From positions 1 to 38,710 of IMG/VR virus record IMGVR_UViG_3300031260_000128: a DNA stretch of 38,710 nucleotides. The stretch is one strand, 5' to 3'. The translations under genes and the position numbers were made by a program. Every line of letters starts with the position of its first letter. The stretch's first letter is position 1. This stretch comes from a virus (taxonomy: Duplodnaviria > Caudoviricetes). Below the pieces are notes generated by a model. It ran no database searches, was not told the DNA's origin, and saw nothing but the letters and a program-made list of their open reading frames with translations. This document shows positions 1 through 38,710 of this stretch, one piece after another.

Positions 1-456
1 TCAAAAGTTACCATTAGCAACTTGAAAACAAGTCAGACCTAGTTCTCTCCACATATCCACAACCTTATTTCTGTCATCAAAAATACACAGGATATCTTCT
101 TTATATTTGGGGTAAAATTTTAAAAGCCAAGAGCGCTTAAGAATCTCATCTGGAGTATATGTGTCCATTTCCCTAAGCGTTAACTCGTCATACATAACAT
201 TATTCTCTGCCAACCATTTGACAGTCTTTTCTTTGGCAATATCACCTCGAGCAGAAAAAATGTGGATTTTGTAACCTAGATGCTTTAAAGCATTTATAGT
301 AGTAATTACCGGTTGATTGGGTATATCCTTGTCACAAGCAAGAAAATATGAGACCCAATCAACTTTTTTAACTTTTGTCTTGTCAATATAATGGCTTCTA
401 TGTTTGTTTAACGCTAAAGTACCATCAAGATCTACAATAACTACTTTACTATCCAT
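1..456 (-). CDS. HAD-family phosphatase resembling the 3'-phosphatase domain of T4 polynucleotide kinase (PseT)
   Basis: DLDGT motif I, FSAR motif II, conserved Lys in PDEILK, and C-terminus FDDRNKVVDMWRELGLTCFQVANGNF similar to the PseT C-terminus; no kinase P-loop domain. Confidence 0.85.
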   Translation of the reverse strand: MDSKVVIVDLDGTLALNKHRSHYIDKTKVKKVDWVSYFLACDKDIPNQPVITTINALKHLGYKIHIFSARGDIAKEKTVKWLAENNVMYDELTLREMDTYTPDEILKRSWLLKFYPKYKEDILCIFDDRNKVVDMWRELGLTCFQVANGNF

Positions 457-458
457 AA

Positions 459-1355
459 CTATTTTATTAATTTTCTTATGTCCTGATGTGCATTAATAAG
501 TTCTTTTCTTAATCTAGTGAATTCTGAAAAATTATATTCTTTATGAATTTTTCCATGAAGAAGAATCATTCGACCATCATCAGTTAATTCACAGTTGCAA
601 TGTGCTAGTGTATTTCTTTCGACCTGTATTCTGTGTACAAGTGAACCATCTTTTAGAAGTTCCTCCCCAATATCTCCTATTAATTCTTTTAAAGAAACTC
701 TTACATTATCAAAAGTTGTAATAATAAAGTTATTGGCAGCGTCTTCTATAGTAGCTATATTCTCAATAACTTTTTGTCTTTCTTCTACTTTTTTTAATAG
801 GCGTGTTTTTAATTTAGTTAGCACCGCTTCACTTTTTGTTACATCACCATGCTTTGAAATATCTATGAGTATTTTTCTAATTTCAAGATCCATTTTGCTA
901 GTTTCTGACATAACCACGCCACGAATATTATTAATGTCAGACATTTTTTTTATATGGTCTTCTATTATTGGTTCTATATCATCATAGAATGTATCTCTAT
1001 GAACAATAAAGACACCATCAACTTCACTCTCATATAGCTTTTTACGAAGGTCTTGAGGAACCTGACCACTATAAAATACCATATCGGTAAAAATCTTACT
1101 TCTAAGGTGGGCAGCAATGCTAAGTCCATTTTCACTCTGTCTCCCTAGGTCATAATCAAAAATTATTAGATCATAAGGATTGTAAAAAGCCAATTTATTG
1201 GCCAAATTTTCTATTTCTTCTGCTGTAATACTATCTTTATGTATTATATCTGGTATGAACCCATTATCAGAAACTAAGAGCTTAAGGCGTTCAACATCAC
1301 CTTCAACGGCGTCAAATTGGTCTTCAAACCAAAGAACTTTATATTCAACTTTCAT
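459..1355 (-). CDS. Receiver (REC) domain protein with a C-terminal putative HEPN-like helical domain
   Basis: VLWFED acidic pocket, DLIIFDYDLG phospho-acceptor Asp, MVFYSG; C-terminal RNTLAH (Rx4H) at 600-617; no HTH output domain. Confidence 0.75.
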   Translation of the reverse strand: MKVEYKVLWFEDQFDAVEGDVERLKLLVSDNGFIPDIIHKDSITAEEIENLANKLAFYNPYDLIIFDYDLGRQSENGLSIAAHLRSKIFTDMVFYSGQVPQDLRKKLYESEVDGVFIVHRDTFYDDIEPIIEDHIKKMSDINNIRGVVMSETSKMDLEIRKILIDISKHGDVTKSEAVLTKLKTRLLKKVEERQKVIENIATIEDAANNFIITTFDNVRVSLKELIGDIGEELLKDGSLVHRIQVERNTLAHCNCELTDDGRMILLHGKIHKEYNFSEFTRLRKELINAHQDIRKLIK

Positions 1356-3886
1356 TATTTTCTGAGCCTTATAGATATTCTAAATCCATGAGGTGGTTGT
1401 TCTTCAGTGATGAAAATTTCTCCACCCATTTTTTCGATTTGTTTCCTACAATGAAACAATCCCAATCCTGAACCTCTAGTTGTTGTTACCCCTTTTTCAA
1501 AGATTCTTTCAGTTTCTAAAATAGAATGGTCTAGCCCCTTTCCATTATCAGTTGCTGTAATGTTCAGGACACTGTTCCCTTCGTTTTTAAGGACAAAATG
1601 TATGAATGATGACCTTGCTTTTTTTGAGTTACTTACCAAGTTATCCAACACCATTCCTAACTCTATAGGCGTAAATGTTGTAACAAATTTCTTGCTATCT
1701 GAATCCACTTTTATCTGAATTCTACTATTATATGCCGTAGAGATTCTTTCCAAATATTCTTTAATATAGATAGCGATATCATCTGTTATTTTTGTAGAGT
1801 CCAGTTTAAAATTAGCGCTAGTAGCAAATCTTGACGTTGTCATTATTTTCTCAACGGATTCTAATAGGTCACTTAACGAACTGGTTAATTCATCTTTATT
1901 TATTTCATTATCATTATTTAATTTTATTAGAGTAGACGTGATTTTCTGTTTTGCAGCTGATGTATATATTATTATTTGGTGCAGGAAGCTTTCTAGTTGA
2001 TCAACATCTCTATTTTCATGTGATAAAAGAAATAAATTTCTTTTCTTTTCTTCTTCATAAGCAGAATTAATTTTCTTAGCCTGAAGTTCCGCCAGCTGCT
2101 TTAGCTGACTCTCTTGATCAGCTTTTATTTCCGCTTGGCGCTTTAGATCAGATTCTTTGTGAGCTCTTAGCTCTGCTTCCTGTTTTAGTCTATTTTCTTC
2201 TTCCGCTCTTTTCTCAGCATCGGCGCGAAGCTTCATTTCAATTTTTGTTTGCTTCTCAGCTTCAAGTCTGGCTTTTAGCTCTCTAGATGCAATGTTTCTA
2301 GCTTCTTCTTCTGCTTTTTTCAATTCAGCGAAGCGTTTTCGTGCTCGCTCTACATTTTGTTGCAGCTCGTCGTTCTGTAAATTTTCTGCTATATTAGCTA
2401 ACTTCTCTACAGAACTTTCAAAATAAAGTGACTTCTCATTTAATACATCAACTAGGTTTCGACTATAATCCACTAGTTCAATATCTTTAGCTCCAGCTAA
2501 TTTTGATACTAGCTCAATTATATTTGCTCTATTCTCGTCTAGGTTTAGTCGTTGAGCGGTTTCATGATGTTTATCAATGCTGTCCTGCCAAGTTACCCCA
2601 ACTACATACTGTTCTAATCTACGAATACATTTTTTAAAAACATATTCAAACAATTGTGAGGATGCCTCAGTTTCAACTAATCCACCGTCACGGCTAGAAG
2701 TCTCTTTAAACTTAGTTTCCGGACCCGCGATATCAACACGCCCCATTATGTCCCGGGTACCGAGCGTTCTAGAGTGACCTTGCTGGTGCCTTCTATCTAT
2801 GCCCCAAGAGTCATCTGTTTCATCTCCAATGGGCATAACCCGAAACCCATTCCTAAATAAGAAAAGAGAGCCAAATGCAACTGAGTGTATCCCTGTACGC
2901 CTCTTAAATAGAGCCTTGGCTGACTGGTTCAAACTAAATATTTGGCATGAGAATTCTGAATCTGCCAATAGAGGATATTGACTAGTTCCCTCTTGAATAC
3001 AGTATATTAGCTCACCTCTATCGATAAGTGTGGTGACAAAGTGATTGTTTGTGTCTAGCTCAACCATAAGTGAGGTGGTCTTATCTCTGAGAATATTAAA
3101 AATATCATTCACAACAGGACCATTAACTAGCGATGGGGGATCTATTGGATCAGCAGGATTTAATGAGATATTTTCTGAGTATTGATTTTGTAACTTGTCA
3201 TCGAGTGCTTTCTCTCTTTGACAGAACATGTTCAATGTTATTGAAGATGTAACGTTACCGAAAGGATTTATTAATTTAGCTAGATTAGTTCTCAATCTTT
3301 TAAGCTTGGTTCTGTCCCAAGAATCAGGTTCTCTTAGGTCCGAAATCTCAAGTATGACACCGGCATTTTGATGATGTAATATACCATTTGGTAAATAAAA
3401 TTTTGATGCAACTTCATGTTTCACATCTATGTTTTCAAATTTTAGTTTTGCATCTTTTTCAAATTTACCCCAATCGACATCTAAAATATGAACACTTTGA
3501 TCTTGCACAGATTTAGATTGTAGTCTAAGTCTTCCACCAAGTCTGTCGCAAGAGAATCTACCAACTCCTTTATTTCCAGCATATATTTTGTGAGATTCAT
3601 TATCTTCGGAGCCATCTTTTTTTGCGGAGTATGCGACGAATAACCATTTATTTACAAGATCCTCGTAGCTCATGCCTTTGCCATCATCGATAATAAAGAT
3701 TTTCTCAATCTTTCCATCATGATCTTCAAATAATAAATTTACGTTTTTAGCATTAGCATCAAAAGAGTTCTTGACAAGTTCAAAAATTGCGATGAAGTCA
3801 TTAGTAATTAGATCTCTTCCAATTACAGATTTTAATGCTGAACTTATTTCGAAATGTAGTGGTTTTGATTGTTTATTTTCCGTCAT
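1355..3886 (-). CDS. MORC-type GHKL ATPase, coiled coil and histidine kinase-like fusion
   Basis: N-terminal ELVKNSFDA, DDGKGM, GNKGVGRFS, LFRNGFRV; C-terminal FLHQI (H-box-like), DNLVSNS, DNGKGL, IFEKG, GSGLGL; no TM segment. Confidence 0.85.
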   Translation of the reverse strand: MTENKQSKPLHFEISSALKSVIGRDLITNDFIAIFELVKNSFDANAKNVNLLFEDHDGKIEKIFIIDDGKGMSYEDLVNKWLFVAYSAKKDGSEDNESHKIYAGNKGVGRFSCDRLGGRLRLQSKSVQDQSVHILDVDWGKFEKDAKLKFENIDVKHEVASKFYLPNGILHHQNAGVILEISDLREPDSWDRTKLKRLRTNLAKLINPFGNVTSSITLNMFCQREKALDDKLQNQYSENISLNPADPIDPPSLVNGPVVNDIFNILRDKTTSLMVELDTNNHFVTTLIDRGELIYCIQEGTSQYPLLADSEFSCQIFSLNQSAKALFKRRTGIHSVAFGSLFLFRNGFRVMPIGDETDDSWGIDRRHQQGHSRTLGTRDIMGRVDIAGPETKFKETSSRDGGLVETEASSQLFEYVFKKCIRRLEQYVVGVTWQDSIDKHHETAQRLNLDENRANIIELVSKLAGAKDIELVDYSRNLVDVLNEKSLYFESSVEKLANIAENLQNDELQQNVERARKRFAELKKAEEEARNIASRELKARLEAEKQTKIEMKLRADAEKRAEEENRLKQEAELRAHKESDLKRQAEIKADQESQLKQLAELQAKKINSAYEEEKKRNLFLLSHENRDVDQLESFLHQIIIYTSAAKQKITSTLIKLNNDNEINKDELTSSLSDLLESVEKIMTTSRFATSANFKLDSTKITDDIAIYIKEYLERISTAYNSRIQIKVDSDSKKFVTTFTPIELGMVLDNLVSNSKKARSSFIHFVLKNEGNSVLNITATDNGKGLDHSILETERIFEKGVTTTRGSGLGLFHCRKQIEKMGGEIFITEEQPPHGFRISIRLRK

Positions 3887-5144
3887 TTTTTACACCTATT
3901 TCGAAATCCCCTAGCAAAAGACCTAGCGCTTCACCAAGAAGAGGTGGAACGGCATTACCTATCTGTGTATATCTCGGACATTCTTTTGTTCTACGGTTGC
4001 CACCCGTCGTATACTTCCCCAAAATGTCAAAACTATCAGGAAAAGACTGTATTCTTGCCATTTCTCTCACTGTCAGAATTCTAGGCTCTGAATAATGCAA
4101 TAGATCATCCGGTAAAGTTGTCAATGTTTTAGAAGGTTCATTTGCATTTAACACTGTAATAGCTTGTTTTTTAGTCCCAATTTCTAAAAGCATGGAGTTA
4201 TTCAGGCATTTCCCTGGTTCACAAATACTTTGAATTCTTTGAAACTTTTCTATCGTCTCGGGTTTGTGACGTGCCAAACGTAGACTATTTGGTTTCTTCA
4301 AGCCTGAATTTTTTCGTATAACTCTTAAATATTTAGATTGTCTTTTTGGCGGAATATAATCAATCTTTTTGAATCCTTTTTTTTCACTTCCAGAATGGTG
4401 TGCTAAATTATTTTTACTAACTAATAGGTCACCTATTGCATCACAAACTTTAACTCTTTTAAGTGGCAAACCTTTAGTAATTAAAAAGTCTCTTCTGCTT
4501 TCTTCTAATATGTCAAATGGATTTTTAAAGTCTTTATTAATTAATTCGTTTCTTATCCCTATCATAATAAATCTAATTCTATTTTGAGGTACGCCGTAGT
4601 CTGCACTACACAAATAATTAGTGAAAATGCTATACCCCAACTTCTCCAGTTTATCTTTTATAATTATAGATTGTGGAAGCTTAATGTTTTCCTCGTCGTT
4701 CGTTTTAAACGGAGTGTTAAAACCTCTAACATTTTCTAAAAGAAGGTATTTGGGAGATATTACTTCTACCATCTTTACATATTCTTCAGACAATTGATTA
4801 CGAGGGTCTTTTGCATTTCTTCGCCCCGCTAAAGAAAAACCTTGGCAAGGAGGCCCTCCGGCAATCAGATCAACTTTCCCTTTTAGTGCTCTCAACTCAT
4901 CTAAATAGTTCGCAAATACGTTTTGAATAGTATTGGCTTCAATGGGCAACCATTCTGGCCAATTGAAATGGGAGTGTACTCCATCGATTAAGTTATGCTT
5001 AAAGGTAGAAAATGCCATTGGGTCTTTTTCAATAGCAAAAAGGCCTTCCCAACCAGCATTACCCAGTCCCAAAGATAATCCACCACAACCCGAGAAAAGG
5101 TCGATATAAGTTCCTTTTTTACTATTTTTCAACCTCTTACTCAT
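3873..5144 (-). CDS. DNA (cytosine-5)-methyltransferase
   Basis: Motifs FSGCGG, GGPPCQGFS, ENV, QNRIR, REMARIQSFPD, QIGNAVPP; ATG at 5144. Confidence 0.96.
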   Translation of the reverse strand: MSKRLKNSKKGTYIDLFSGCGGLSLGLGNAGWEGLFAIEKDPMAFSTFKHNLIDGVHSHFNWPEWLPIEANTIQNVFANYLDELRALKGKVDLIAGGPPCQGFSLAGRRNAKDPRNQLSEEYVKMVEVISPKYLLLENVRGFNTPFKTNDEENIKLPQSIIIKDKLEKLGYSIFTNYLCSADYGVPQNRIRFIMIGIRNELINKDFKNPFDILEESRRDFLITKGLPLKRVKVCDAIGDLLVSKNNLAHHSGSEKKGFKKIDYIPPKRQSKYLRVIRKNSGLKKPNSLRLARHKPETIEKFQRIQSICEPGKCLNNSMLLEIGTKKQAITVLNANEPSKTLTTLPDDLLHYSEPRILTVREMARIQSFPDSFDILGKYTTGGNRRTKECPRYTQIGNAVPPLLGEALGLLLGDFEIGVKNDGK

Positions 5145-5416
5145 CAAAAAAACCTTTAATTTTAGTTATATATGCAGAAGCCGATTATAATATTTAGTAA
5201 GTAAAATACCAGGTGATACGTTAAATATTCTACAACTTTTTTGAGCACATTTTACACAGAATGGCCCCTATTTTTGTTATCAGTAGATGTGCACTTAGCG
5301 CTGAGTAAGAGCTATTCAATTGGGTTTTAGTTAAACTGCTCTGATGCGTTGACCATCTTTCTGAATGAACTTCTCATAGTCCTTATTCTTGCAACCCATC
5401 CTCTTATGGCCATTTA

Positions 5417-5749
5417 CTAATTTTTATTATTTGTGACTGCTTCCATTACTGTCCAATACTCTGTCATGCTTCCTTTTTTGCGAAGCTTGATCATCCCAGA
5501 GAAAACAGCCGTATCTGCAACATAAACCTTTTCGCCTTTCTCAAACATCACGCATTGTCCAGACAATATGCCAGCAGTTAACCCCTGAGAGAATGCGTCC
5601 ATATCTTTATCTACAGCGTAGCGGAGTAGCTTGTCATAGTAATCTCTATCTTGGCAGCCGATGTTTTGGTCTCGAGTGATGGTTTTCTCTAATGCACTGG
5701 CGCTAAGACTAACTAAAGCTAACGCAATGATGGATAGTTGTTTTTTCAT
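5417..5749 (-). CDS. Small secreted/periplasmic protein downstream of cI
   Basis: Sec signal MKKQLSIIALALVSLSASA; AAGGA RBS 8 nt before ATG 5749; two Cys residues. Confidence 0.75.
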   Translation of the reverse strand: MKKQLSIIALALVSLSASALEKTITRDQNIGCQDRDYYDKLLRYAVDKDMDAFSQGLTAGILSGQCVMFEKGEKVYVADTAVFSGMIKLRKKGSMTEYWTVMEAVTNNKN

Positions 5750-5786
5750 TGAAAACATCCTTGTGAGTGTAAAGAGTTGATCGTTG

Positions 5787-6737
5787 TTAACAGCGTTCTA
5801 AAACGCTCACCACTTTACCGTGAATGTGAGTGGTTTCGCTGTTAACTGCGTAACGTTCCCCGTTGTCGAGTAGATACACTTTACCATCTGGAAGCAACTG
5901 CATCTCGCCGATTTTGTAAACATCATTAATCCGGTACAGGTATGTGCCTTCTGTGACTGTCTTTTCAGCGCAAGATACGAAGAGTAACTTGTTTGCTGAT
6001 TGCAACACTAACGCCTTGTGCTTGGGGTTTAAGCCAAAAGCTTGCACGGCTTCTAGGTTGAAGTGATAGTCCTGGCTGGGAACCAATTGACCGTTTTCAA
6101 TATGGAAAACGCTTAGGCTTGTCTGCGGTTGGTGTTGCTCTGAACTCACTGGTGTAACTACGGATGGTGTGGATGGGGATACACTAGGGAACTCGTTTCC
6201 TTGACCAAAACACAAGTATTTAAGACTGACGCCAGTGATAAGATGAATTCTTACTAGCAGTTCATGTGGCACTGTATTCCTTGTCGTCCAAGTTGAAAAT
6301 GTACCAGCTGTTATCCCCAACAACTCGCCAAGTTCAATTCGTGTTCTGACTTTAAACAAGTGGATTAATCGCTTGATTAATGTACGACCTCCATCCGCAT
6401 TTATCGGCTGAGAAAGTGTCTGTCGATTTCGGTCTTTTTCATCAAATGAATATTTATCTGGCATCCTATCTAACTGGATTCCAAAACAAAGGTATTGCAT
6501 TGGAACATTTGTAATCAAATGAATGCGTATTAACAATTCGAAAGGAGTGCTGTCTCTTGTCATCCATGTTGAGATTGTACCAGGTGTTACCCCGATTAAC
6601 TCACTAAGATCGCCTCTGCCCCTCAAGTTAAACAAGTGAATAAGTCGAGATATAAGCGTCTTCCCACCATCACATCTAACTGGCGACTTTAATTCTATTG
6701 AATTATTTTTTGTTTTATCATTGCAATTAACATTCAT
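5787..6737 (-). CDS. cI: 186/K139-type CI repressor with two tandem N-terminal HTH domains
   Basis: Two 64-aa repeats DGG..LI.RLIHLF...GT.STW.TR...P.ELL.RIHLIT.V...YLCFG followed by a beta-rich C-terminal domain; divergent from cox; start uncertain (6737 preferred). Confidence 0.88.
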   Translation of the reverse strand: MNVNCNDKTKNNSIELKSPVRCDGGKTLISRLIHLFNLRGRGDLSELIGVTPGTISTWMTRDSTPFELLIRIHLITNVPMQYLCFGIQLDRMPDKYSFDEKDRNRQTLSQPINADGGRTLIKRLIHLFKVRTRIELGELLGITAGTFSTWTTRNTVPHELLVRIHLITGVSLKYLCFGQGNEFPSVSPSTPSVVTPVSSEQHQPQTSLSVFHIENGQLVPSQDYHFNLEAVQAFGLNPKHKALVLQSANKLLFVSCAEKTVTEGTYLYRINDVYKIGEMQLLPDGKVYLLDNGERYAVNSETTHIHGKVVSVLERC

Positions 6738-6744
6738 ATGATCA

Positions 6745-6832
6745 ACAATCCATTTGTTTGATAAACGAGCGCCACAATCCGCCAAGATGCAGAGCGCTAA
6801 CAATCGAGGATATCACAATGTCAGAAACAATC
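6745..6832. promoter_or_regulatory. Lysis/lysogeny switch region with five ACAAT(C/G) direct repeats
   Basis: Copies at 6745, 6774, 6800, 6815 and 6827 between and around the divergent cI and cox starts. Confidence 0.45.
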
Positions 6833-11899: not shown

Positions 11900-12189
11900 T
11901 GCAAACATTGCTCAGAGGTATCGAACAGGAAGCGACGATCATGGATTTAATCAGCCTCACTGATATTACCAGCGAAGGCATTATAGGTGGCCTGGTAGAT
12001 TACTACGTGCGCGGCCATAACTTGACCACAGCTGCCGCCTTGAACGGCCAAACTAAAGGCAACTTAGGTACCGCAAAAGCTACATTAGAAGCCAAAGCAA
12101 TGATCGTGTACCGCATCAACGAACGAGAAAATGCACGAAAAGGTTATGGGTTCACTCAGAACAATTTGCAAATGGAGGTAAACCAGTGA
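11896..12189 (+). CDS. PapB/FocB-like small transcription regulator
   Basis: LISLTDITSEGIIGGLVDYYVRGHNLTTAAALNG resembles the PapB family pattern. Confidence 0.6.
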   Translation: MMQTLLRGIEQEATIMDLISLTDITSEGIIGGLVDYYVRGHNLTTAAALNGQTKGNLGTAKATLEAKAMIVYRINERENARKGYGFTQNNLQMEVNQ

Positions 12190-12431
12190 TCATCACCGCT
12201 ACCACTCAAGTGAATATTAGTCAGCAAGAGATAGACCGCATTACCACCGCTAGGCTTAATCAGTTTTGGCTGCGGATGAATGTCACTGCAGATAGTTTGC
12301 GTATAGAAAACGGTAACCTAGTTGTAGATTACACCTTAGCCGGCGGGCATGAGATTAGCGAAGTATTGCGTAAAGCAACTGAGTTAGATAAAGCTATTTT
12401 CACCGTGCTAATTGCCCTATCTCACGGTTGA
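12186..12431 (+). CDS. Hypothetical protein
   Basis: GTGA overlap, GGAGG RBS. Confidence 0.55.
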   Translation: MIITATTQVNISQQEIDRITTARLNQFWLRMNVTADSLRIENGNLVVDYTLAGGHEISEVLRKATELDKAIFTVLIALSHG

Positions 12432-12513
12432 TACTGGACAACTGCTAGGTTGGACGTTTGAGCCCTCATCATTATTTTTCATCGTATTTATTTTCATGTA
12501 ACAGCTTATCGTA

Positions 12514-12567
12514 TAACAACAATATCGTTACTTATCATATACATAATAAGTAACGATGTTGTTGTTA
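12514..12567. repeat. 22-bp inverted repeat with a 10-nt loop
   Basis: TAACAACAATATCGTTACTTAT-CATATACATA-ATAAGTAACGATGTTGTTGTTA, one mismatch. Confidence 0.95.
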
Positions 12568-12782
12568 GGATAAAATTTTTGTGGTCTGCTTTAGTCCAAT
12601 AAGACTGGCGTAAACAGTGAAAATTACTTGTTAGGATAATAGATGTATTTTTTAGTTTCCTGATATTAGATTTTTTAATGGAAACTTGTGCTGTAATTCT
12701 GTAACTATGTGAATATTATTGATTATTTCTATACGTTTATTTACTTTGATGACGTTGTTTAGAAATATTTACGGAGTAAAAA

Positions 12783-12974
12783 ATGTGTTGTTTGCGGTTA
12801 CATCAGATTGGGTTACTGACTGGGATGATGGCCGATACAGATATATCTGAACGGGACAGATCTGCAATCACAGCTCTTATTGCAGAGATTTCAACAAAGC
12901 CATGTGACGAGATACTCAAGATAAAATCCACTATTCCTCGTGCTGCACATCAAATGAATTCAATAGCGGAGTGA
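12783..12974 (+). CDS. Small hypothetical phage protein
   Basis: GGAG RBS, 63 aa. Confidence 0.5.
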   Translation: MCCLRLHQIGLLTGMMADTDISERDRSAITALIAEISTKPCDEILKIKSTIPRAAHQMNSIAE

Positions 12975-13003
12975 ATTTTTGGAGTTATTGGGGTTATTCT
13001 AAT

Positions 13004-13039
13004 TTGACGATATAGTTAATTGGGGTTACTATAACCCCA
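13004..13039 (+). promoter_or_regulatory. hicAB sigma70 promoter with an overlapping palindromic operator
   Basis: TTGACG-17 nt-TACTAT; palindrome TGGGGTTA-CTA-TAACCCCA (13021-13039) covers the -10. Confidence 0.8.
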
Positions 13040-13061
13040 CATTAAACAGGTGGGAGGTTTA

Positions 13062-13241
13062 GTGAAGAGTGCAGACCTGATTAAGCTTTTGGAATCCAAT
13101 GGATGGCAGCTTGTCAGCGTAAGAGGAAGTCACCATAAATTTAGACATCCAGATTACGAAGATCCTGTGGTAGTTCCTCACCCAAAGAAAGATTTAGGTA
13201 AGGGATTGGTTCAAAAGCTAAAACGGCAGGCGGGGCTATAA
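13062..13241 (+). CDS. hicA: HicA mRNA interferase toxin
   Basis: GWQLVSVRGSHHKFRHP, VVVPHPKKDLGKG; GTG start after GGAGG. Confidence 0.95.
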   Translation: MKSADLIKLLESNGWQLVSVRGSHHKFRHPDYEDPVVVPHPKKDLGKGLVQKLKRQAGL

Positions 13242-13293
13242 GCCCCTCCTTATCCCTCACTGAACTGATAGAAGTAAGTAATGGAGCAAAGTT

Positions 13294-13725
13294 ATGTTAT
13301 ATCCCATTGCAATTGAAATTGGCGATACCGACGTGGCATATGGTGTGGCATTTCCTGATTTGGCTGGCTGCTTCTCTGCGGGTGACACTTTAGAGGAGGC
13401 GTTATCCAATGCTAAAGAAGCCGCGGAGATGTATTTAGAAGACTTGGCTGAACGTGGAAAATTACCGCCTCAAGCAGGTGATTTGGCAACATGGCAGAAA
13501 GATCCTGAATATCAGGGCTGGGCGTGGGCAGTTGTGGACGTAGATATTGAGCCATACATGGGTAAGGCTGCGAAAATCAATGTCACGTTACCAACTTTAG
13601 TGACAAAACGCATTGATGATATCGTTAAGCAGATGCCCGAATATAAAAGCCGCAGCAACTTTTTGCAAATAGCAGCAATGCGCGAGTTAGCACGTAGTAA
13701 AGAGCATAGTGATAGTGCAGCTTAA
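13294..13725 (+). CDS. hicB: HicB antitoxin with C-terminal RHH
   Basis: YGVAFPDLAGCFSAGDTLEEALSNAKEA, KINVTLP, SRSNFL. Confidence 0.95.
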   Translation: MLYPIAIEIGDTDVAYGVAFPDLAGCFSAGDTLEEALSNAKEAAEMYLEDLAERGKLPPQAGDLATWQKDPEYQGWAWAVVDVDIEPYMGKAAKINVTLPTLVTKRIDDIVKQMPEYKSRSNFLQIAAMRELARSKEHSDSAA

Positions 13726-20533: not shown

Positions 20534-22630
20534 TTAACTCACCGTGTATTTGTAACCATAAATGCGGTGTACCTTGGCGTTTTCCGAGGTGGTGACAAAG
20601 GTCTGGTTGTTGCTGCTGAAATAGCCCCGGAAACGAATGCCATCAGACTGTAACAGGCACACATCCAGTCCCAGCGACCTCACCGCATTGAGCATGTCGG
20701 TGGGCAGAAAGCTCATGGCTGCATAGGAGCTGTCATCACCGCCGGCAATTACCACCAACCCATCAAAACTGGAATACGGCGCGGACAGGGTGAAGTTCCC
20801 CTGCGCAACGGCAGAACCCAATAGCAGGGTAAAGGTCATCTTACCGGTGTGGCTATGGGCCGAGGGGGTGAAACTTGACGGTTTGCTGCTGACTTCATTC
20901 CAGGACGGCCAACGACTGGCGGTGGCGGGAATACCGGACACCTGACTCCAGCTGTGGCTGTGCGAGGATGCCGCAGCACCCACATCGGCGGCCGTCAAGG
21001 AGATATCGGCAGTCAAGGGCTTGCCGTTCACCTTGCGGGCGGTCGGGACATAGTCGTGCGTGTGGGCCGCCGGTGGGAAGGTGGCGGGCTTGCTGCTCAC
21101 TTCACTCCAGGCGGGCCAGCGGCTGGCAGTGACCGGGATATTGGCTACCTGACTCCAGCTATGGGTATGTGTGGCGGGTGCGGCGCCGACTTCTGCGTAG
21201 CTGGGCTTGTGCCCGGTGTGGTAGATCTCGTTAAACTGGCCCCAGGTGCTGGCGTCATACGTCTGCTGTCTGAAGCCGATGCGACCCGCGCCCGATTTGT
21301 CCATGCACAGCAGGTTGGACACCTTTACATCGGTGCCGCTGTAAGCTGAGATCCACAGGCAATCACTCCAGCTTATACCTGGAACACCCCCCAGACCATT
21401 ATTGCCATTGCCCAGCATCTGGTAGCGCAGTTTGCCCGAGCCAAAGAAGGACGGCGCCGCCAGTCCCCCGGAAACATAGTTGTTACCACCCAATTCCGTG
21501 TGACTGTGCCCGGCTGGGGGAAAGCTGGCAGGTTTGCTGCTCACTTCACTCCAGGACGGCCAGCGACTGGCAGTGGCAGGGATACCGGACACCTGACTCC
21601 AGCTGTGGCTGTGTGTGGTGGGCGCAGCGCCTACATCGGCGGCATTCAGTGACACATGGCCGGTACGGCCATTCACCGAGGAGACCGCATCGGTGTTATC
21701 CACCTTGTCCCATTGGCTGCCATTGGAAATGAGCCAGTCGCCTAGCTCGAAGGTAAGGCCAAACTGGCTGCCAGCCACTTTGACAATGTAGTAGTCGCCT
21801 TTCTTGGCGGGCACGCTGGGCAGCGCTGGCACGTTATTGGCTGCATCCCACACGCCTTTATATTCGACCTGACCTAGTACCGAATCGTTGATCTGATTGA
21901 GCGGGATTTTGGCGTTGGCATCCAGGGTTGCCACGCCGCCGGCTACCCCGCGGCTGGCCTGCTGCACATAGCGGGCATCGAGCTGGCTGTTATTGCGCAC
22001 CTGCTCGTTACCGGTGCCGGCATAGCGATAGCCCGCCACCGCATGATTGCCCCAGTGCCAGGCGGCATTCCAGTGGGCCACGTCTTCCAGACCGCTGTCA
22101 GCAAACCGCAGGTTAATCATCTGGGTTACGCGCGCACTGTGGACGGCCAGGTGGCGGTCATCCAGAGGTGAACTGTCCTGTGTCAGTTGCAGCAGCCCCG
22201 GTACGGATTCAGTGCCTGGTGGCAGCATGAAGCTGGTATCGCCGGTGATGTTGATAAGCGCAGCATCGGCAGCGGCCAGCTTGATATCCACCGCCAGCAA
22301 GGCCACGGCGCTCGGAGTTTTCTCCAGAATGACTTCCGGCTGTGAATACACCGCGAACAGGGTGTCATCATCGCTATAGAGGCCAAAGGCGATTAACTGG
22401 TAAGCATCATTGGATTCATCACGGATAGTCACATGCAGCGTGTCATCATCGACCAGTTCGCCGGCAAAGGTGTCCAGGCGTTTGATTTCCTTTGGCAGCG
22501 TTGTGACGTCGGGGGTGGCGTCAAAGGCGGTTTCACTCAGGCCAATCGCGGTAATGGTGATGGCGTTGGTGCCGGTATTCTGGGCGTTGATAAGGGCGGC
22601 GCGGCCCGCCGCGGTGATGGTGAGGTTCAT
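20534..22630 (-). CDS. H: Tail fibre protein with HxH repeats
   Basis: N-terminal ITAAGRAALINA baseplate anchor; VSSVNG/RKVNGKPLTADISLTAADVGA fibre motifs. Confidence 0.9.
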   Translation of the reverse strand: MNLTITAAGRAALINAQNTGTNAITITAIGLSETAFDATPDVTTLPKEIKRLDTFAGELVDDDTLHVTIRDESNDAYQLIAFGLYSDDDTLFAVYSQPEVILEKTPSAVALLAVDIKLAAADAALINITGDTSFMLPPGTESVPGLLQLTQDSSPLDDRHLAVHSARVTQMINLRFADSGLEDVAHWNAAWHWGNHAVAGYRYAGTGNEQVRNNSQLDARYVQQASRGVAGGVATLDANAKIPLNQINDSVLGQVEYKGVWDAANNVPALPSVPAKKGDYYIVKVAGSQFGLTFELGDWLISNGSQWDKVDNTDAVSSVNGRTGHVSLNAADVGAAPTTHSHSWSQVSGIPATASRWPSWSEVSSKPASFPPAGHSHTELGGNNYVSGGLAAPSFFGSGKLRYQMLGNGNNGLGGVPGISWSDCLWISAYSGTDVKVSNLLCMDKSGAGRIGFRQQTYDASTWGQFNEIYHTGHKPSYAEVGAAPATHTHSWSQVANIPVTASRWPAWSEVSSKPATFPPAAHTHDYVPTARKVNGKPLTADISLTAADVGAAASSHSHSWSQVSGIPATASRWPSWNEVSSKPSSFTPSAHSHTGKMTFTLLLGSAVAQGNFTLSAPYSSFDGLVVIAGGDDSSYAAMSFLPTDMLNAVRSLGLDVCLLQSDGIRFRGYFSSNNQTFVTTSENAKVHRIYGYKYTVS
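20880..21613 (-). repeat. Three ~83-bp imperfect direct repeats in the tail fibre gene
   Basis: About 20880-20962, 21087-21170 and 21531-21613, each encoding H(S/T)HSWSQV..IP.TASRWP.W.EVSSKP. Confidence 0.9.
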
Positions 22631-25380: not shown

Positions 25381-26178
25381 ATGAATAACTATCTACAAAT
25401 TCTGATGAAAGTGCTAGAAAAAATACCTTTTCTGGAATTTAGAAAACGTATGTGGGGATTTATTAAAAACCCAACGATTGATAATAGCTATGCTTCTATC
25501 ACCCAGCTCCAGCATTCTGGAATTGATATATTCAATGCCCTTGGTTTTTTGTCAATAGTTTGTGTGTTTTTGGCGTTGTTCGAGCAATCTTGGACCGTAT
25601 TTAAAGTAGTATCTGTTTTTAACCCCTTGTATATGATCGGTGTGCATATTGGAAATGGAGTTGTGTACTCGTTCACTCTATCCTCGATTTTTACTATTTG
25701 GTACTGCTTGAAGGTAGGTAATGTTAATCACTACAAAGATATTTCATACAAGATCTTTGCTCATGGATTGCGTATTTATGCTTTGTATGGCTTATTGTTA
25801 GGACTTTTATTTATAAAAAGTTACGGTGATTTTCTGCTTAACGGTATATGTCCTAAGCAATCATTTTCCCATTTGGGTTGGGCTACTTATATAGTGGTGG
25901 CCTTAGTATGGTGGCCTTTTAGGTTGCTAGTTAACCCAATATACAAACTAATGGCGTTTAATAATCACAAAAAAATTGCTTGGTTACTTGCTGTATTGAT
26001 TTGTTTCACCAGTTTTCAACCATTAAAAATTATTTTGATAGGTAGTAGTGATAGGCTAGTTAATTATGAACAGCAGTGTAAAATATTTAAATCAGGTACC
26101 TTTTACAAAGGTATGGAAAGAAGCAGAAAAGAAAAAGCTGAAAACTATTTTTGTAACGCTACTCACAAGGGAGAGTAG
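25381..26178 (+). CDS. AT-rich cargo: multi-pass membrane protein
   Basis: About five hydrophobic segments; opposite strand to flanking tail genes. Confidence 0.75.
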   Translation: MNNYLQILMKVLEKIPFLEFRKRMWGFIKNPTIDNSYASITQLQHSGIDIFNALGFLSIVCVFLALFEQSWTVFKVVSVFNPLYMIGVHIGNGVVYSFTLSSIFTIWYCLKVGNVNHYKDISYKIFAHGLRIYALYGLLLGLLFIKSYGDFLLNGICPKQSFSHLGWATYIVVALVWWPFRLLVNPIYKLMAFNNHKKIAWLLAVLICFTSFQPLKIILIGSSDRLVNYEQQCKIFKSGTFYKGMERSRKEKAENYFCNATHKGE

Positions 26179-26234
26179 TAACCTGCAGCCTAAAAGACAC
26201 CATTGAACTCAGACACTGGGAGCCTTGATTAAGC

Positions 26235-26720
26235 ATGGAGCAATTTGACCGAGTAGAAAGATATTTGAACAAAATTAGAAACGTATATTCTGGTGAAAAT
26301 CAAATATTTTGGAAAGATCGAAAGATGGTGGAGGATGATATTCTTTCATTTTTCATCCACTGCCATCATCTGCAAGATTGGATTTTAACTCTCAACAGAG
26401 TTGGTGTGTCTCAGACTGAATTAAAAGGATTTATAGAAAAACATGATTCGTTAAAACTATGTGCTGACATAGCTAATAGGTCTAAGCACTGTAGACTAAC
26501 AAAGAAGCAGTGGTCTAATGCTAAGCCGCATTTAGCTGGTCGTCAGTACACTAGCAACGGGGATGCAGACTCTCCAGGTATAAAAGGTAAGTTCACTATT
26601 ATTACTAGGAATAAAATTGTTGATGTACTTGAACTTGCTGAAACGTGTTGGAAACTGTGGCTTGAATTTAGTGCAGAATTAGAAACAAAGTTCATATGCG
26701 ACAATCAAAAACAGGCTTAA
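26235..26720 (+). CDS. AT-rich cargo: possible divergent HEPN-like protein
   Basis: FFIHCHHLQDW and LCADIANRSKH motifs. Confidence 0.55.
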   Translation: MEQFDRVERYLNKIRNVYSGENQIFWKDRKMVEDDILSFFIHCHHLQDWILTLNRVGVSQTELKGFIEKHDSLKLCADIANRSKHCRLTKKQWSNAKPHLAGRQYTSNGDADSPGIKGKFTIITRNKIVDVLELAETCWKLWLEFSAELETKFICDNQKQA

Positions 26721-35943: not shown

Positions 35944-36145
35944 GCACTTGGCAAGCGCTGGTGCAGGGCGGTGTCAGCGTATAGCCGTGCTATTGTGTGC
36001 CACAGCGCTAAGACTTGTTGCTCTGTCATCATGAACTAATTGACCAAATTTTAGTAATGCTACCAAATGAGTACTCTGGCAGTGACAGATCTAGTGTTCG
36101 CTCAATGACAAACATTCTACTTTATCAAAATAATGAAGGACTCAA

Positions 36146-36174
36146 TTGACTCGTTTGGGGCCCTATAATAGATT
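36146..36174 (+). promoter_or_regulatory. Putative sigma70 promoter for the riboswitch-alx unit
   Basis: TTGACT-17 nt-TAGATT puts +1 near 36181, at the riboswitch start. Confidence 0.55.
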
Positions 36175-36180
36175 TATACT

Positions 36181-36296
36181 CGCAAAGGGGAGTAACTTCA
36201 TTGTCGGTAGATCGTCATCACGATGCTTAAAGCATCCGGTCGCTGAGCAACCTATTTGGATGGTTGTAAGTGAGACCTTGCCGGAAGGCGAGGTCT
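36181..36296 (+). ncRNA. yybP-ykoY (Mn2+-sensing) riboswitch, alx-type leader
   Basis: AAAGGGGAGTAAC, CGTCATCAC, CCGG, GTGAGACCTTG core, then hairpin AGACCTTGCC-GGAA-GGCGAGGTCT as recalled for the E. coli alx leader; upstream of a TerC gene. Confidence 0.9.
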
Positions 36297-36365
36297 ATTG
36301 CTGCTCAAAATCAATGGCTGACACTTTCTGTGTTGGCCATTTTGTTTTTAAGGAGTAGCTATTTT

Positions 36366-37316
36366 ATGACAACAGTCGGAACACCTATGCTTTGGGGCGC
36401 TTTTGCTCTCATAGTTTTTACAATGCTTGCTATCGATTTGATGATTCAAGGTCGCCGAGGCGAGTATGGCATGTCCGTCAAGCAAGCCGCAGTTTGGTCA
36501 GTTATTTGGGTATCAATATCATTAACGTTCAATGCAGGTCTTTGGTGGTATTTAACCAAAACTACTGGAAGTGAAGTGGCGGTAGAGCAGTCTGTCGCAT
36601 TTTTAACTGGGTATTTAATTGAAAAGGCCTTAGCGGTTGATAATCTGTTTGTCTGGCTAATGTTGTTCAACTATTTTGCGGTTCCCGCTTCCTTACAGCG
36701 CCGAGTGTTAGTTTATGGTGTTATAGGCGCTATCATATTGCGAACATTAATGATTTTCGGTGGCAGTTGGTTAATCTCCCAATTTGACTGGCTATTATAT
36801 GTATTCGGCGTTTTTTTAATTTTTACCGGTGCCAAAATGTTTTTTGGCAGCGAGGAACAAGAAAATACCGCTGATAATCCTCTAATCAAATGGTTACAAC
36901 GACACCTTCGAGTTACTAATACGCTAGAAAATGAGCATTTTTTAGTAAAACGTAATGGACTTTGGTATGTCACACCGTTGTTTTTGACATTGGTGATGGT
37001 TGAACTGAGTGATGTCATTTTTGCCCTTGATAGCATTCCAGCGATTTTTGCCGTTACAACAGATCCTTTCATCGTACTGACCTCCAACTTGTTTGCGATT
37101 CTAGGTCTGAGGGCAATGTATTTCTTGCTAGTCGGTATGGCAGAAAAGTTCTCGTTGCTTAAATATGGGCTAGCCGTCATTTTGCTTTTCATCGGGCTAA
37201 AGATGGCAATGGTTGATTTCATTCATATACCGGTTGCGATTTCGCTTGGGGTAGTTGCAATGATTCTTGCAGTGACTTTGGTTGCTAGTATTTTTATTAG
37301 ACAGAAAGATAATTAG
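36366..37316 (+). CDS. alx: TerC-family membrane protein Alx (Mn2+ homeostasis)
   Basis: [73 protein letters not shown]; AAGGAG RBS. Confidence 0.93.
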
Positions 37317-37651: not shown

Positions 37652-38710
37652 TCAGACCGCCTTAAACTTGTCATGCAGCTTATGAGGATAGAGCTGGGTG
37701 TAGACTTGCCAAAGAATATTTAGATTTCTATGCCCTGTTACCTGGGCGACTTCCTCAATGGAATAACCTGCTTCAAACAATCGGCTGGCACCTTCACGCC
37801 GCAGATCATGGTAATGCAGGTCAGTGATGCCAAGAGCATTGCGGACACGTTGAAATCCAGCAGTGACAGATTTTTCGTTGTAGGGGAATATCCGGTCGTC
37901 GGATTTAGGTTGCCGCTTAATGATTTTGAAGGAGTCACCAAGCAATGGCACTACCATGTGGTTCCCATCTTTTTTGCGTGGGTCTTTCCTATCACGAACG
38001 ATCACGGTCTTATTCTTTTCATCTAAATCGCGCCAGGTGATCCGGCAGACTTCGCCAATGCGCATACAGGTTAAGATACTGAAATCAAGAATATCGACAA
38101 AAGGGATAGCACCACCGTGAGCATTGCCCATACGTTGACGTAGGCCTTTTCGTAATTTATTCAGTTCATCAGTGGTTGGGCGTCTGGTACGTTTTTGGCT
38201 TTTGCCGACGAGCTTCATGTCGATTAGAACGGGAACTGCTTCTTCAAAAACTTGCCAGTTAGCCTCTATATCCCAAACCGCTTTTGCTTTTTTCATCACG
38301 CTGCGAAGATATGCCACATCATGGTAAATAGTTGCAGGCCCCGCGCCAGCTTCTCGGCGATTTTTACAGTGCTGGATAATGTCAGACGCTTTGAGCTGAT
38401 CAGTGCGCACTTGAGCAATATCGCAGTCCATTAACATCTGGATCACGTAACGCTTTGTTCTGCCGGTATTACTCCATAGATCATGATCTTCATAGAATAA
38501 ATTCAGCAGTTCAAAAATGGTGCTGGTTTTGTGCTGTTCTGTAATGGCCTCGTTTTCAATTGCTGTACAGCGTAAAATGCCCCACTCTTTAGCAATCTGA
38601 TGCTTGCCAAAAGTCTTGGACTCGCTGCGACCATCAGAAGCTCTAACTAAGCACCGATAACGAGTATCACCCTTTGCGGTTTTGCGGGGTTGAATAGTGT
38701 AGTTAGCCAT
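37652..38710 (-). CDS. int: Tyrosine recombinase/integrase (Rci/HP1-like, possibly dusA-associated family)
   Basis: TCMRIGEV (R), RKDPRKK, YHDLRREGASRLFE (HxxR), TGHRN, VYTQL (Y). Confidence 0.93.
   Translation of the reverse strand: MANYTIQPRKTAKGDTRYRCLVRASDGRSESKTFGKHQIAKEWGILRCTAIENEAITEQHKTSTIFELLNLFYEDHDLWSNTGRTKRYVIQMLMDCDIAQVRTDQLKASDIIQHCKNRREAGAGPATIYHDVAYLRSVMKKAKAVWDIEANWQVFEEAVPVLIDMKLVGKSQKRTRRPTTDELNKLRKGLRQRMGNAHGGAIPFVDILDFSILTCMRIGEVCRITWRDLDEKNKTVIVRDRKDPRKKDGNHMVVPLLGDSFKIIKRQPKSDDRIFPYNEKSVTAGFQRVRNALGITDLHYHDLRREGASRLFEAGYSIEEVAQVTGHRNLNILWQVYTQLYPHKLHDKFKAV

Follow-up and report, generated by a model that had tools for sequence, protein, structure and literature searches.

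A conserved methylase, kinase and receiver-effector cassette at the edge of a P2-like prophage, with a probable HEPN ribonuclease as its predicted output

What do a histidine kinase and its receiver control when the pair lies next to a DNA methylase in a prophage? The question is raised by the stretch of DNA analyzed here (the window), a whole IMG/VR record of 38,710 nucleotides (nt), IMGVR_UViG_3300031260_000128 (G000), whose gene content (cI, cox, cII, replication A, tail, capsid, terminase, portal, integrase) is that of a P2-like prophage. Beyond the repressor gene at the prophage edge lie four open reading frames (ORFs), all on the minus strand: a C5-cytosine DNA methyltransferase (3873..5144; 423 amino acids (aa) counted from ATG, with an alternative TTG start at 5147), a paraMORC-like GHKL ATPase fused to a histidine kinase (1355..3886; 843 aa), a receiver domain fused to a helical HEPN-like domain (459..1355; 298 aa) and a stand-alone PNK-type HAD phosphatase (1..456; 151 aa). 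The original prediction, made from the sequence alone, described four co-oriented AT-rich genes, and the ORF coordinates and composition agree with it: methylase and kinase overlap by 14 nt, kinase and receiver by 1 nt in a TAATG, a 2-nt gap separates receiver from phosphatase, and the GC content of the cassette is 0.347 compared with 0.536 for 6801-38710. We find that the cassette is real, intact and mobile, a distinct family within a predicted class and likely the member of that class whose output can be named. Its conserved part is a three-gene core of methylase, kinase and receiver-effector with an accessory phosphatase, rather than the fixed four-gene system first proposed.

The 298-aa receiver-effector was modeled confidently by AlphaFold (predicted local distance difference test, pLDDT, 88.5). 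Residues 3-138 adopt a receiver fold (Z 13-14, root-mean-square deviation 2.5-2.9, ~120 residues aligned) with an acidic pair (Glu11, Asp12), the phosphoacceptor Asp67 and the expected Ser/Thr (Ser96), followed by Arg120. The C-terminal domain (model pLDDT 88.8) is helical, with a beta hairpin following a motif that reads R247-N-x-x-A-H252 and sits at the end of a helix spanning 239-252; R145-G146 and Asp156 lie upstream. In all 196 homologs of 270-350 aa, taken from 208 fetched, D67, R145, G146, R247 and H252 are invariant, the polar N248 is present in 189, and position 156 is always acidic (Asp in 164, Glu in 32). A motif at a helix end, a polar residue after the Arg and a conserved upstream acidic residue are the features by which HEPN domains are described (Anantharaman et al. 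2013, PMC3710099, in the passages available). Below-cut-off Pfam matches in a 143-row alignment point the same way (RiboL-PSP 7, Swt1 7, Abi_2 6, Apea 3, Csm6 2; best E 1.1e-4), as do profile-profile comparisons with RiboL-PSP (10 members) and Swt1 (12 members), which gave a probability of 61-62% at E 8e-5. The RiboL-PSP and Swt1 profiles score 52% against each other, and ten control pairs of unrelated domains score below 1%. Given the motif, its position, the upstream acidic residue and the weak profile matches, rather than the fold, we regard the domain as a HEPN ribonuclease (RNase) with high probability. No DNA-binding output domain was seen on the receiver, and no helix-turn-helix (HTH) family occurs in the top 25 families of the 143 members. 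A cREC identity, raised by a weak PF20274 match, was rejected since the passages describing the cREC family place it never with kinases. No relatives of the receiver-effector were found in IMG/VR, INPHARED, PLSDB or, by DNA search, E. coli RefSeq.

The gene upstream encodes an N-terminal GHKL ATPase (PF13589, aa 32-153, E 1.4e-23), a middle domain, a coiled coil of variable length and a C-terminal histidine kinase (PF02518, aa 741-842, E 6e-19). The ATPase carries Glu36, Asn40, D67xGxG and K106; the kinase carries a His636-Gln637 box, Asn749/Asn753, Asp780 and G805-G807-G809. Among the 117 homologs that reach 760 aa (120 were fetched), each of these catalytic residues is kept in 116-117, with E36, N40, D67, G69, G71, K106, G107 and G109 on the ATPase side and H636, Q637, N749, N753 and the G2 glycines on the kinase side invariant. 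The kinase domain matches SrrB, ZraS and PrrB in the PDB; the ATPase part has no match among solved structures, and an Atlas model, in which an S5-fold domain was sought, aligns over aa 3-497 with other HATPase_c_3 proteins at a template-modeling (TM) score of 0.85-0.88. The call of a MORC ATPase holds for the intact GHKL motifs and fails for the strict motif that Iyer et al. give for MORCs (GhXhhpXXRhl): compared by eye, the Arg residues of the candidate stretch 339-350 fall at positions 7 and 11, not at 9. Because of this mismatch, paraMORC-like is the better name.

Scans of genomes and metagenomes recovered 25 and 30 loci, respectively, or 47 after dropping 8 with identical receiver matches. 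The proposed check of neighborhood conservation was borne out for the core. In every one of the 43 loci whose flank reaches 250 nt, the kinase is directly upstream of the receiver gene (42 by script, L025 from its map), and a methylase is near the receiver gene in 34 of the 35 loci with at least 3.7 kb upstream, although it is placed downstream and convergent in L022-L025. The phosphatase is directly downstream in only 11/40. Pairwise identities of the kinase, receiver and HEPN-like domains correlate (Spearman 0.85-0.87), and the kinase and receiver-effector trees largely agree across the window and 31 complete loci; the two descend jointly. Records with these loci are labelled as Pseudomonadota, Thermodesulfobacteriota, Verrucomicrobiota, Planctomycetota, Balneolota and Acidobacteriota. 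Grouped at 50% identity, the matches of a profile search formed 1,214 clusters, 967 of them with E<=1e-10 and 296 with E<=1e-30; the best 150 were inspected, and weaker matches may reflect no more than a shared receiver. In all 18 long genome loci (of 25), kinase-receiver GC is below that of the flanks. Neighbors include relaxases, toxin-antitoxin pairs, Fic, IS66, Vsr, Mrr and HNH.

A restriction endonuclease is absent from the window, as first noted, a statement that covers the window and not DNA left of base 1. For the family the picture is mixed: 8 of 26 fully flanked loci add a homolog of the Mrr, HNH or GIY-YIG nucleases seen in these loci, and 18 lack these types, which makes the core the most likely place for the effector. 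Plain restriction-modification (R-M) with its nuclease outside the window was rejected for the family on these counts and since L037 holds only an Mrr remnant. For the window cassette itself, a nuclease just left of the window may be the explanation. As weak evidence to the contrary, none of 88 homologs of the L001 Mrr appeared on a contig whose length matches that recorded for the cassette proteins, in a listing that gives the longest contig of each cluster only.

The methylase is a clear family member (PF00145, E 4.6e-58; PADLOC MTase_II, E 2e-80) with FxGxG at 17-21, a catalytic PC (Cys100), ENV at 137-139 and RxR at 189-191, motifs invariant in 32/32 aligned sequences. The phosphatase matches PF25109 HAD_PNKP (E 3.7e-31, 108.6 bits versus a cut-off of 27.6), so that together with PF00145, PF13589/PF02518 and the receiver fold the initial domain assignments of all four genes are supported, those of MORC and HEPN more weakly than first proposed, as is the claim of intact catalytic residues. 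The phosphatase residues D9-L-D11-G-T, S68-x-R70, K107 and D127-D128 are invariant in 12/12 cassette copies. These copies are 60-77% identical to the window copy, against 49% for the best viral and 43% for the best plasmid relative, which argues that the cassette phosphatase is a dedicated subgroup as judged by sequence. All eight phosphatase-bearing rows fall within one 13-row methylase clade (support 93/93).

The phosphatase had been proposed to reset or heal. Its closest solved structures are RNA-end enzymes, Pnkp1 (4xrp, E 2e-20) and T4 PNK (1ltq, E 2.7e-10), and action on RNA ends is for this reason the most likely of its roles, with resetting not favored. PNK phosphatases remove 2',3'-cyclic phosphate, and RtcB-type ligases have an end requirement. 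Such cyclic phosphates are what HEPN RNases are described to leave (PMC3710099). With no kinase domain in the protein and no RNA ligase among 72 neighbors scanned, healing would be incomplete, and the enzyme may instead clear fragments or prevent RtcB-type re-ligation. We modestly favor removal of the HEPN-left cyclic phosphate, either clearing sub-lethal cuts or blocking RtcB-type ligases, over resetting of the receiver.

From these parts we propose a mechanism. Invading DNA, sensed by the ATPase module, would lead the fused kinase to phosphorylate the receiver; receiver phosphorylation would in turn switch on the probable HEPN RNase, leading to abortive infection; the methylase would mark self, and the accessory phosphatase would process RNA ends cut by the RNase. 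The steps differ in strength. Phosphotransfer from His636 to Asp67 is very probable because the residues are the textbook ones and the cognate pair travels together. A role of the cassette in defense against phages or plasmids is probable, a reading supported by Ambrosia, a validated kinase-receiver-methylase phage defense that acts through transcription and whose receiver Asp is required for defense (van den Berg et al., bioRxiv 10.1101/2025.09.30.679545, as its available text reports). That the RNase would be turned on by phosphorylation, not off, is the polarity we lean toward, and whether the signal would be DNA without the cassette's 5-methylcytosine (5mC) mark is an even call. The whole chain of kinase-activated RNase, abortive infection and self-marking falls somewhat short of an even chance. 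Slightly more tentative still is the version in which a paraMORC DNA sensor would feed a His-to-Asp relay acting on a HEPN RNase with no transcription step, while an RNA-healing phosphatase would trim the ends and possibly block repair. If true, it would make a two-component system a toxin trigger and a repair enzyme a toxin helper.

Several observations weigh against parts of this proposal, beginning with the methylase. L012 (5644-8897) and L042 (553-3815) have kinase and effector with every catalytic residue but lack a methylase next to them; compared with a relative that has one, homology ends within ~25 nt of the kinase start, and the L012 genome, which may be incomplete, has no match to the methylase query. 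The methylase tree mostly follows that of the kinase, with exchange between kinase lineages at least twice: L007/L008 have a methylase and a phosphatase close to those of the window (72-76%) together with a distant kinase (47%), and L005 shows the reverse. In Ambrosia, methylation did not protect phages, according to the available text. The methylase-less loci weaken simple or strict self-marking as first proposed and, with the methylase swaps and the Ambrosia result, keep two alternatives alive. In one, the methylase would be needed to trigger: it would mark entering or replicating DNA, the ATPase would read (hemi)methylated DNA, the relay would fire the RNase, and Mrr or HNH nucleases would cut the marked DNA. 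We consider this unlikely, even as it accommodates the tolerated loss of methylase beside an intact effector, the Mrr- and HNH_2-type accessory partners and an Ambrosia methylase that is required yet not protective (in the same source). Vsr, near 7/55 loci by script count, points instead to lasting 5mC in host DNA, and there are just two loci without a methylase, which may be silent relics or stem from a single event. The words avoided in the prophage did not single out a methylase target, as several are under-represented. GATC is rare in 5201-38710, with 130 observed and 286 expected on both strands, and GGWCC, CGWCG and TGGCCA are also under-represented there.

Canonical receivers are activated by phosphorylation, which argues against the second alternative, a guard of reversed polarity. 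Here, as long as host DNA, methylase or ATP is normal, the kinase would maintain receiver phosphorylation and thereby restrain the RNase; a phage inhibitor or degradation of host DNA would stop the kinase, and the unphosphorylated effector would fire as a PrrC-like back-up. Two departures from canonical pairs, which also count against our proposal, would allow such a non-standard switch. The Lys expected after beta5 is Arg120 in 186 of 196 receivers (Lys in 9), and the residue after the kinase His is Gln in 117/117, not the acidic residue that the published rule gives. In addition, R-M-linked HEPN RNases have been proposed to be held off until R-M is disabled (PMC3710099, available passages). 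The methylase-less loci argue against guarding of the methylase itself, and we think the guard a rather unlikely account. In L002:5598-8004 and L050:2148-4497 the kinase gene is broken into several frames and the receiver-effector is intact; if this is not an assembly error, kinase loss is tolerated there, which would favor activation by phosphorylation over guarding.

The third set of contrary observations concerns the output. The HEPN profile match spans just 25-26 columns at the motif and is gone once the motif is masked. The isolated C-terminal domain retrieved no HEPN structure in Foldseek at E<=0.001, a VIA search gave helical fragments with a best Z of 6.2 and no HEPN, a PDB sequence search gave no HEPN, and Atlas returned unnamed clusters only. 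The predicted HEPN effector therefore stands on its motif and weak profile matches and not on a fold, although the suggested AlphaFold check did yield the receiver. The domain might then cut DNA or be a non-catalytic output, with direct restriction gated by phosphorylation. Consistent with this are the missing fold match, the general service of paraMORCs to DNases (PMC2292703, passages available), a below-cut-off resemblance of the ATPase N-terminal part to the BbrUII/HgiDII restriction enzymes (E 6.6e-17) and one family member that weakly matches PD-Lambda-5_A, from a system described in the accessible text as a compact R-M-plus-Abi system. We hold it improbable in view of the invariant R-N-x-x-x-H, the upstream acidic residue, the matches to five HEPN families and a partner that would be an RNA-end phosphatase. 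Last, a selfish module for addiction or stress dormancy that plays no part against phages would suit a patchy, mobile and rare cassette (apart from the seed, one genome in 400 Gammaproteobacteria and, again apart from the seed, one in 301 of another phylum), many of whose flanks are housekeeping genes rather than defense islands, but is very improbable given accessory genes that are nucleases, a prophage slot in which related phages carry a toxin or integron-like genes, and a validated defense system of similar layout in Ambrosia.

The prophage context agrees in part with the predicted cargo position in a GC-richer prophage: the prophage is P2-like and the surroundings are mobile with a low-GC cassette, while the placement is by analogy. 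The terminases of the window and of Shewanella phage M16-3 share 80% identity, and the repressor-to-prophage-end stretch of M16-3 contains integron-like cargo. As annotated, M16-3 (L143:33277-39847) has an IntI integrase and ~14 small hypothetical genes from repressor to genome end. In G707 the corresponding slot is filled by low-GC genes over ~6 kb, among them one for a YhaV toxin and one with a weak HEPN match, and two further related records carry short cargo there. In the same slot of a related prophage (L144:817-2744), a 339-aa ORF with a weak, MAE_28990-like HEPN match and a 272-aa ORF of no known kind lie beside a YhaV toxin. Because related phages carry cargo at this position, the cassette likely sits in a cargo slot inside the prophage; an attachment (att) core or site was looked for and not found. 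The stop codon of the phosphatase is base 1 of the window, and an inward-pointing integrase (37652-38710) forms the right end. Contigs of run X1, a possible source, extend 31,061 bases left of base 1 and 19,768 beyond base 38710, showing that the record was cut at gene edges. A circularly permuted phage with the integrase adjoining the phosphatase was rejected, as the contigs continue differently on each side.

Next to the cassette is the CI-type repressor (5787-6803, minus strand). It has a duplicated N-terminal HTH with two PF07022 stretches and a 92-nt direct repeat (6280-6371 and 6556-6647, 72% alike), and a pattern search of IMG/VR found no relative. In the interval from cI to the methylase, a 113-aa ORF (5417-5758, minus strand) with a signal-peptide-like start had no match in Pfam, NCBIfam, PADLOC or PHROG and is possibly a superinfection-exclusion gene. 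A promoter scan gave nothing beyond chance. Elsewhere, two low-GC ORFs of 265 and 161 aa at 25381-26720 (plus strand) are inserted opposite to the tail-gene direction and have no Pfam or PHROG match; they make up a second cargo slot and are a candidate defense pair. A TerC/Alx-family membrane gene with a long untranslated leader (~36000-36360) occupies 36270-37316 (plus strand) in the portal-to-integrase interval. Low GC also marks 12189-13725, where a 25-nt inverted repeat lies at 12514-12567 and a HicB-like antitoxin is encoded at 13294-13725, likely with a short HicA partner upstream. Within the tail fiber gene, three 167-nt repeats (20847-21664) coincide with a place where the X1 assembly fragments into short contigs, compatible with a variable fiber segment.

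How does the cassette compare with what is already known? The suggested PADLOC check (2.0.0, 2023 library) found no full match to a named system: the hits were limited to generic models for methylases and a short one to REase_II, and the library has no model for the receiver-effector. PADLOC 2.0.0 predates Ambrosia, and we set the cassette apart from Ambrosia by the latter's description. A literature search, with most subscription papers outside it, turned up no cassette of this kind in which the receiver is joined to a HEPN effector; passages of the Iyer 2008, Anantharaman 2013, Tiamat, BREX, WASA, jumbo-phage, DefensePredictor, Vassallo 2022, eLife 2020 and HisKA papers likewise contain no such fusion alongside a GHKL kinase. 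The legend of DefensePredictor Fig. 6F shows a predicted, unvalidated system with HATPase and REC labels.

The cassette is not "undescribed" as a type, since the class of methylase, paraMORC-kinase and receiver is in print and kinase-receiver-methylase defense is validated. The accessible text of Bellieny-Rabelo et al. 2021 (PMC8011034) predicts HEF_HK (PF19191)/Response_reg_2 (PF19192) pairs beside C5 methylases and proposes an R-M link, with no effector named. The layout is the same: a soluble protein with HATPase_c_3, a His-box and HATPase_c adjoins a receiver-like gene, with a C5 methylase upstream and Vsr and HNH_2 as frequent neighbors in both. The differences lie in the proteins. PF19191 has no match at E<=0.1 in the window kinase or 19 full-length homologs, and PF19192 is absent from the window protein and weak in 9/143 distant members (best E 4.3e-4). 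The cassette kinase has a His-Gln box where HEF_HK has His plus an acidic residue, and its receiver is 298 aa with a HEPN-like motif, whereas the receiver query of that account is 600 aa; the passages available mention no PNK-type phosphatase.

Ambrosia also joins a methylase, a HATPase kinase and a receiver in a single operon. As its available text describes, it has an N6-adenine methylase, while that of the cassette is a C5 methylase of PF00145; it has an XRE regulator, and no XRE lies upstream in the window; its receiver is a winged-HTH protein acting on transcription, in contrast to a receiver fused to a probable RNase; and its HNH nuclease is obligatory, against an optional nuclease in 8/26 loci of our family. 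No host toxicity was seen for Ambrosia in that text. The R-M-like MORC/paraMORC operons of prokaryotes (Iyer et al. 2008, PMC2292703, available passages) resemble the cassette in that an N-terminal GHKL ATPase is encoded near a cytosine methylase, Vsr and HNH genes. They differ in an SF2 helicase partner, which was not seen at the cassette, and in the strict MORC motif, which the cassette ATPase lacks. The terms 'receiver', 'two-component' and 'HEPN' are each absent from PMC2292703.

Like the T4 Pnk and Pnkp1 end-healing enzymes, the cassette has a PNK-family phosphatase that would meet cyclic-phosphate ends, but it has no kinase domain and sits with a probable toxin rather than a ligase. PrrC is gated by an ABC ATPase together with a type I R-M complex, whereas we propose gating by His-Asp transfer. 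What the cassette shares with PrrC/RloC is a HEPN-type motif beside a methylase (PMC3710099, in the passages available). If true, direct gating of an enzyme by His-Asp transfer would join the known ways to fire an anti-phage toxin, giving a phosphorylation-switched RNase and a handle on what bacterial MORC-like ATPases sense. Methylase-linked paraMORC-kinase/receiver pairs are found in hundreds of genomes, and their output has not been shown by anyone so far; in this family the receiver bears a visible candidate active site, so that trigger, polarity and output become testable.

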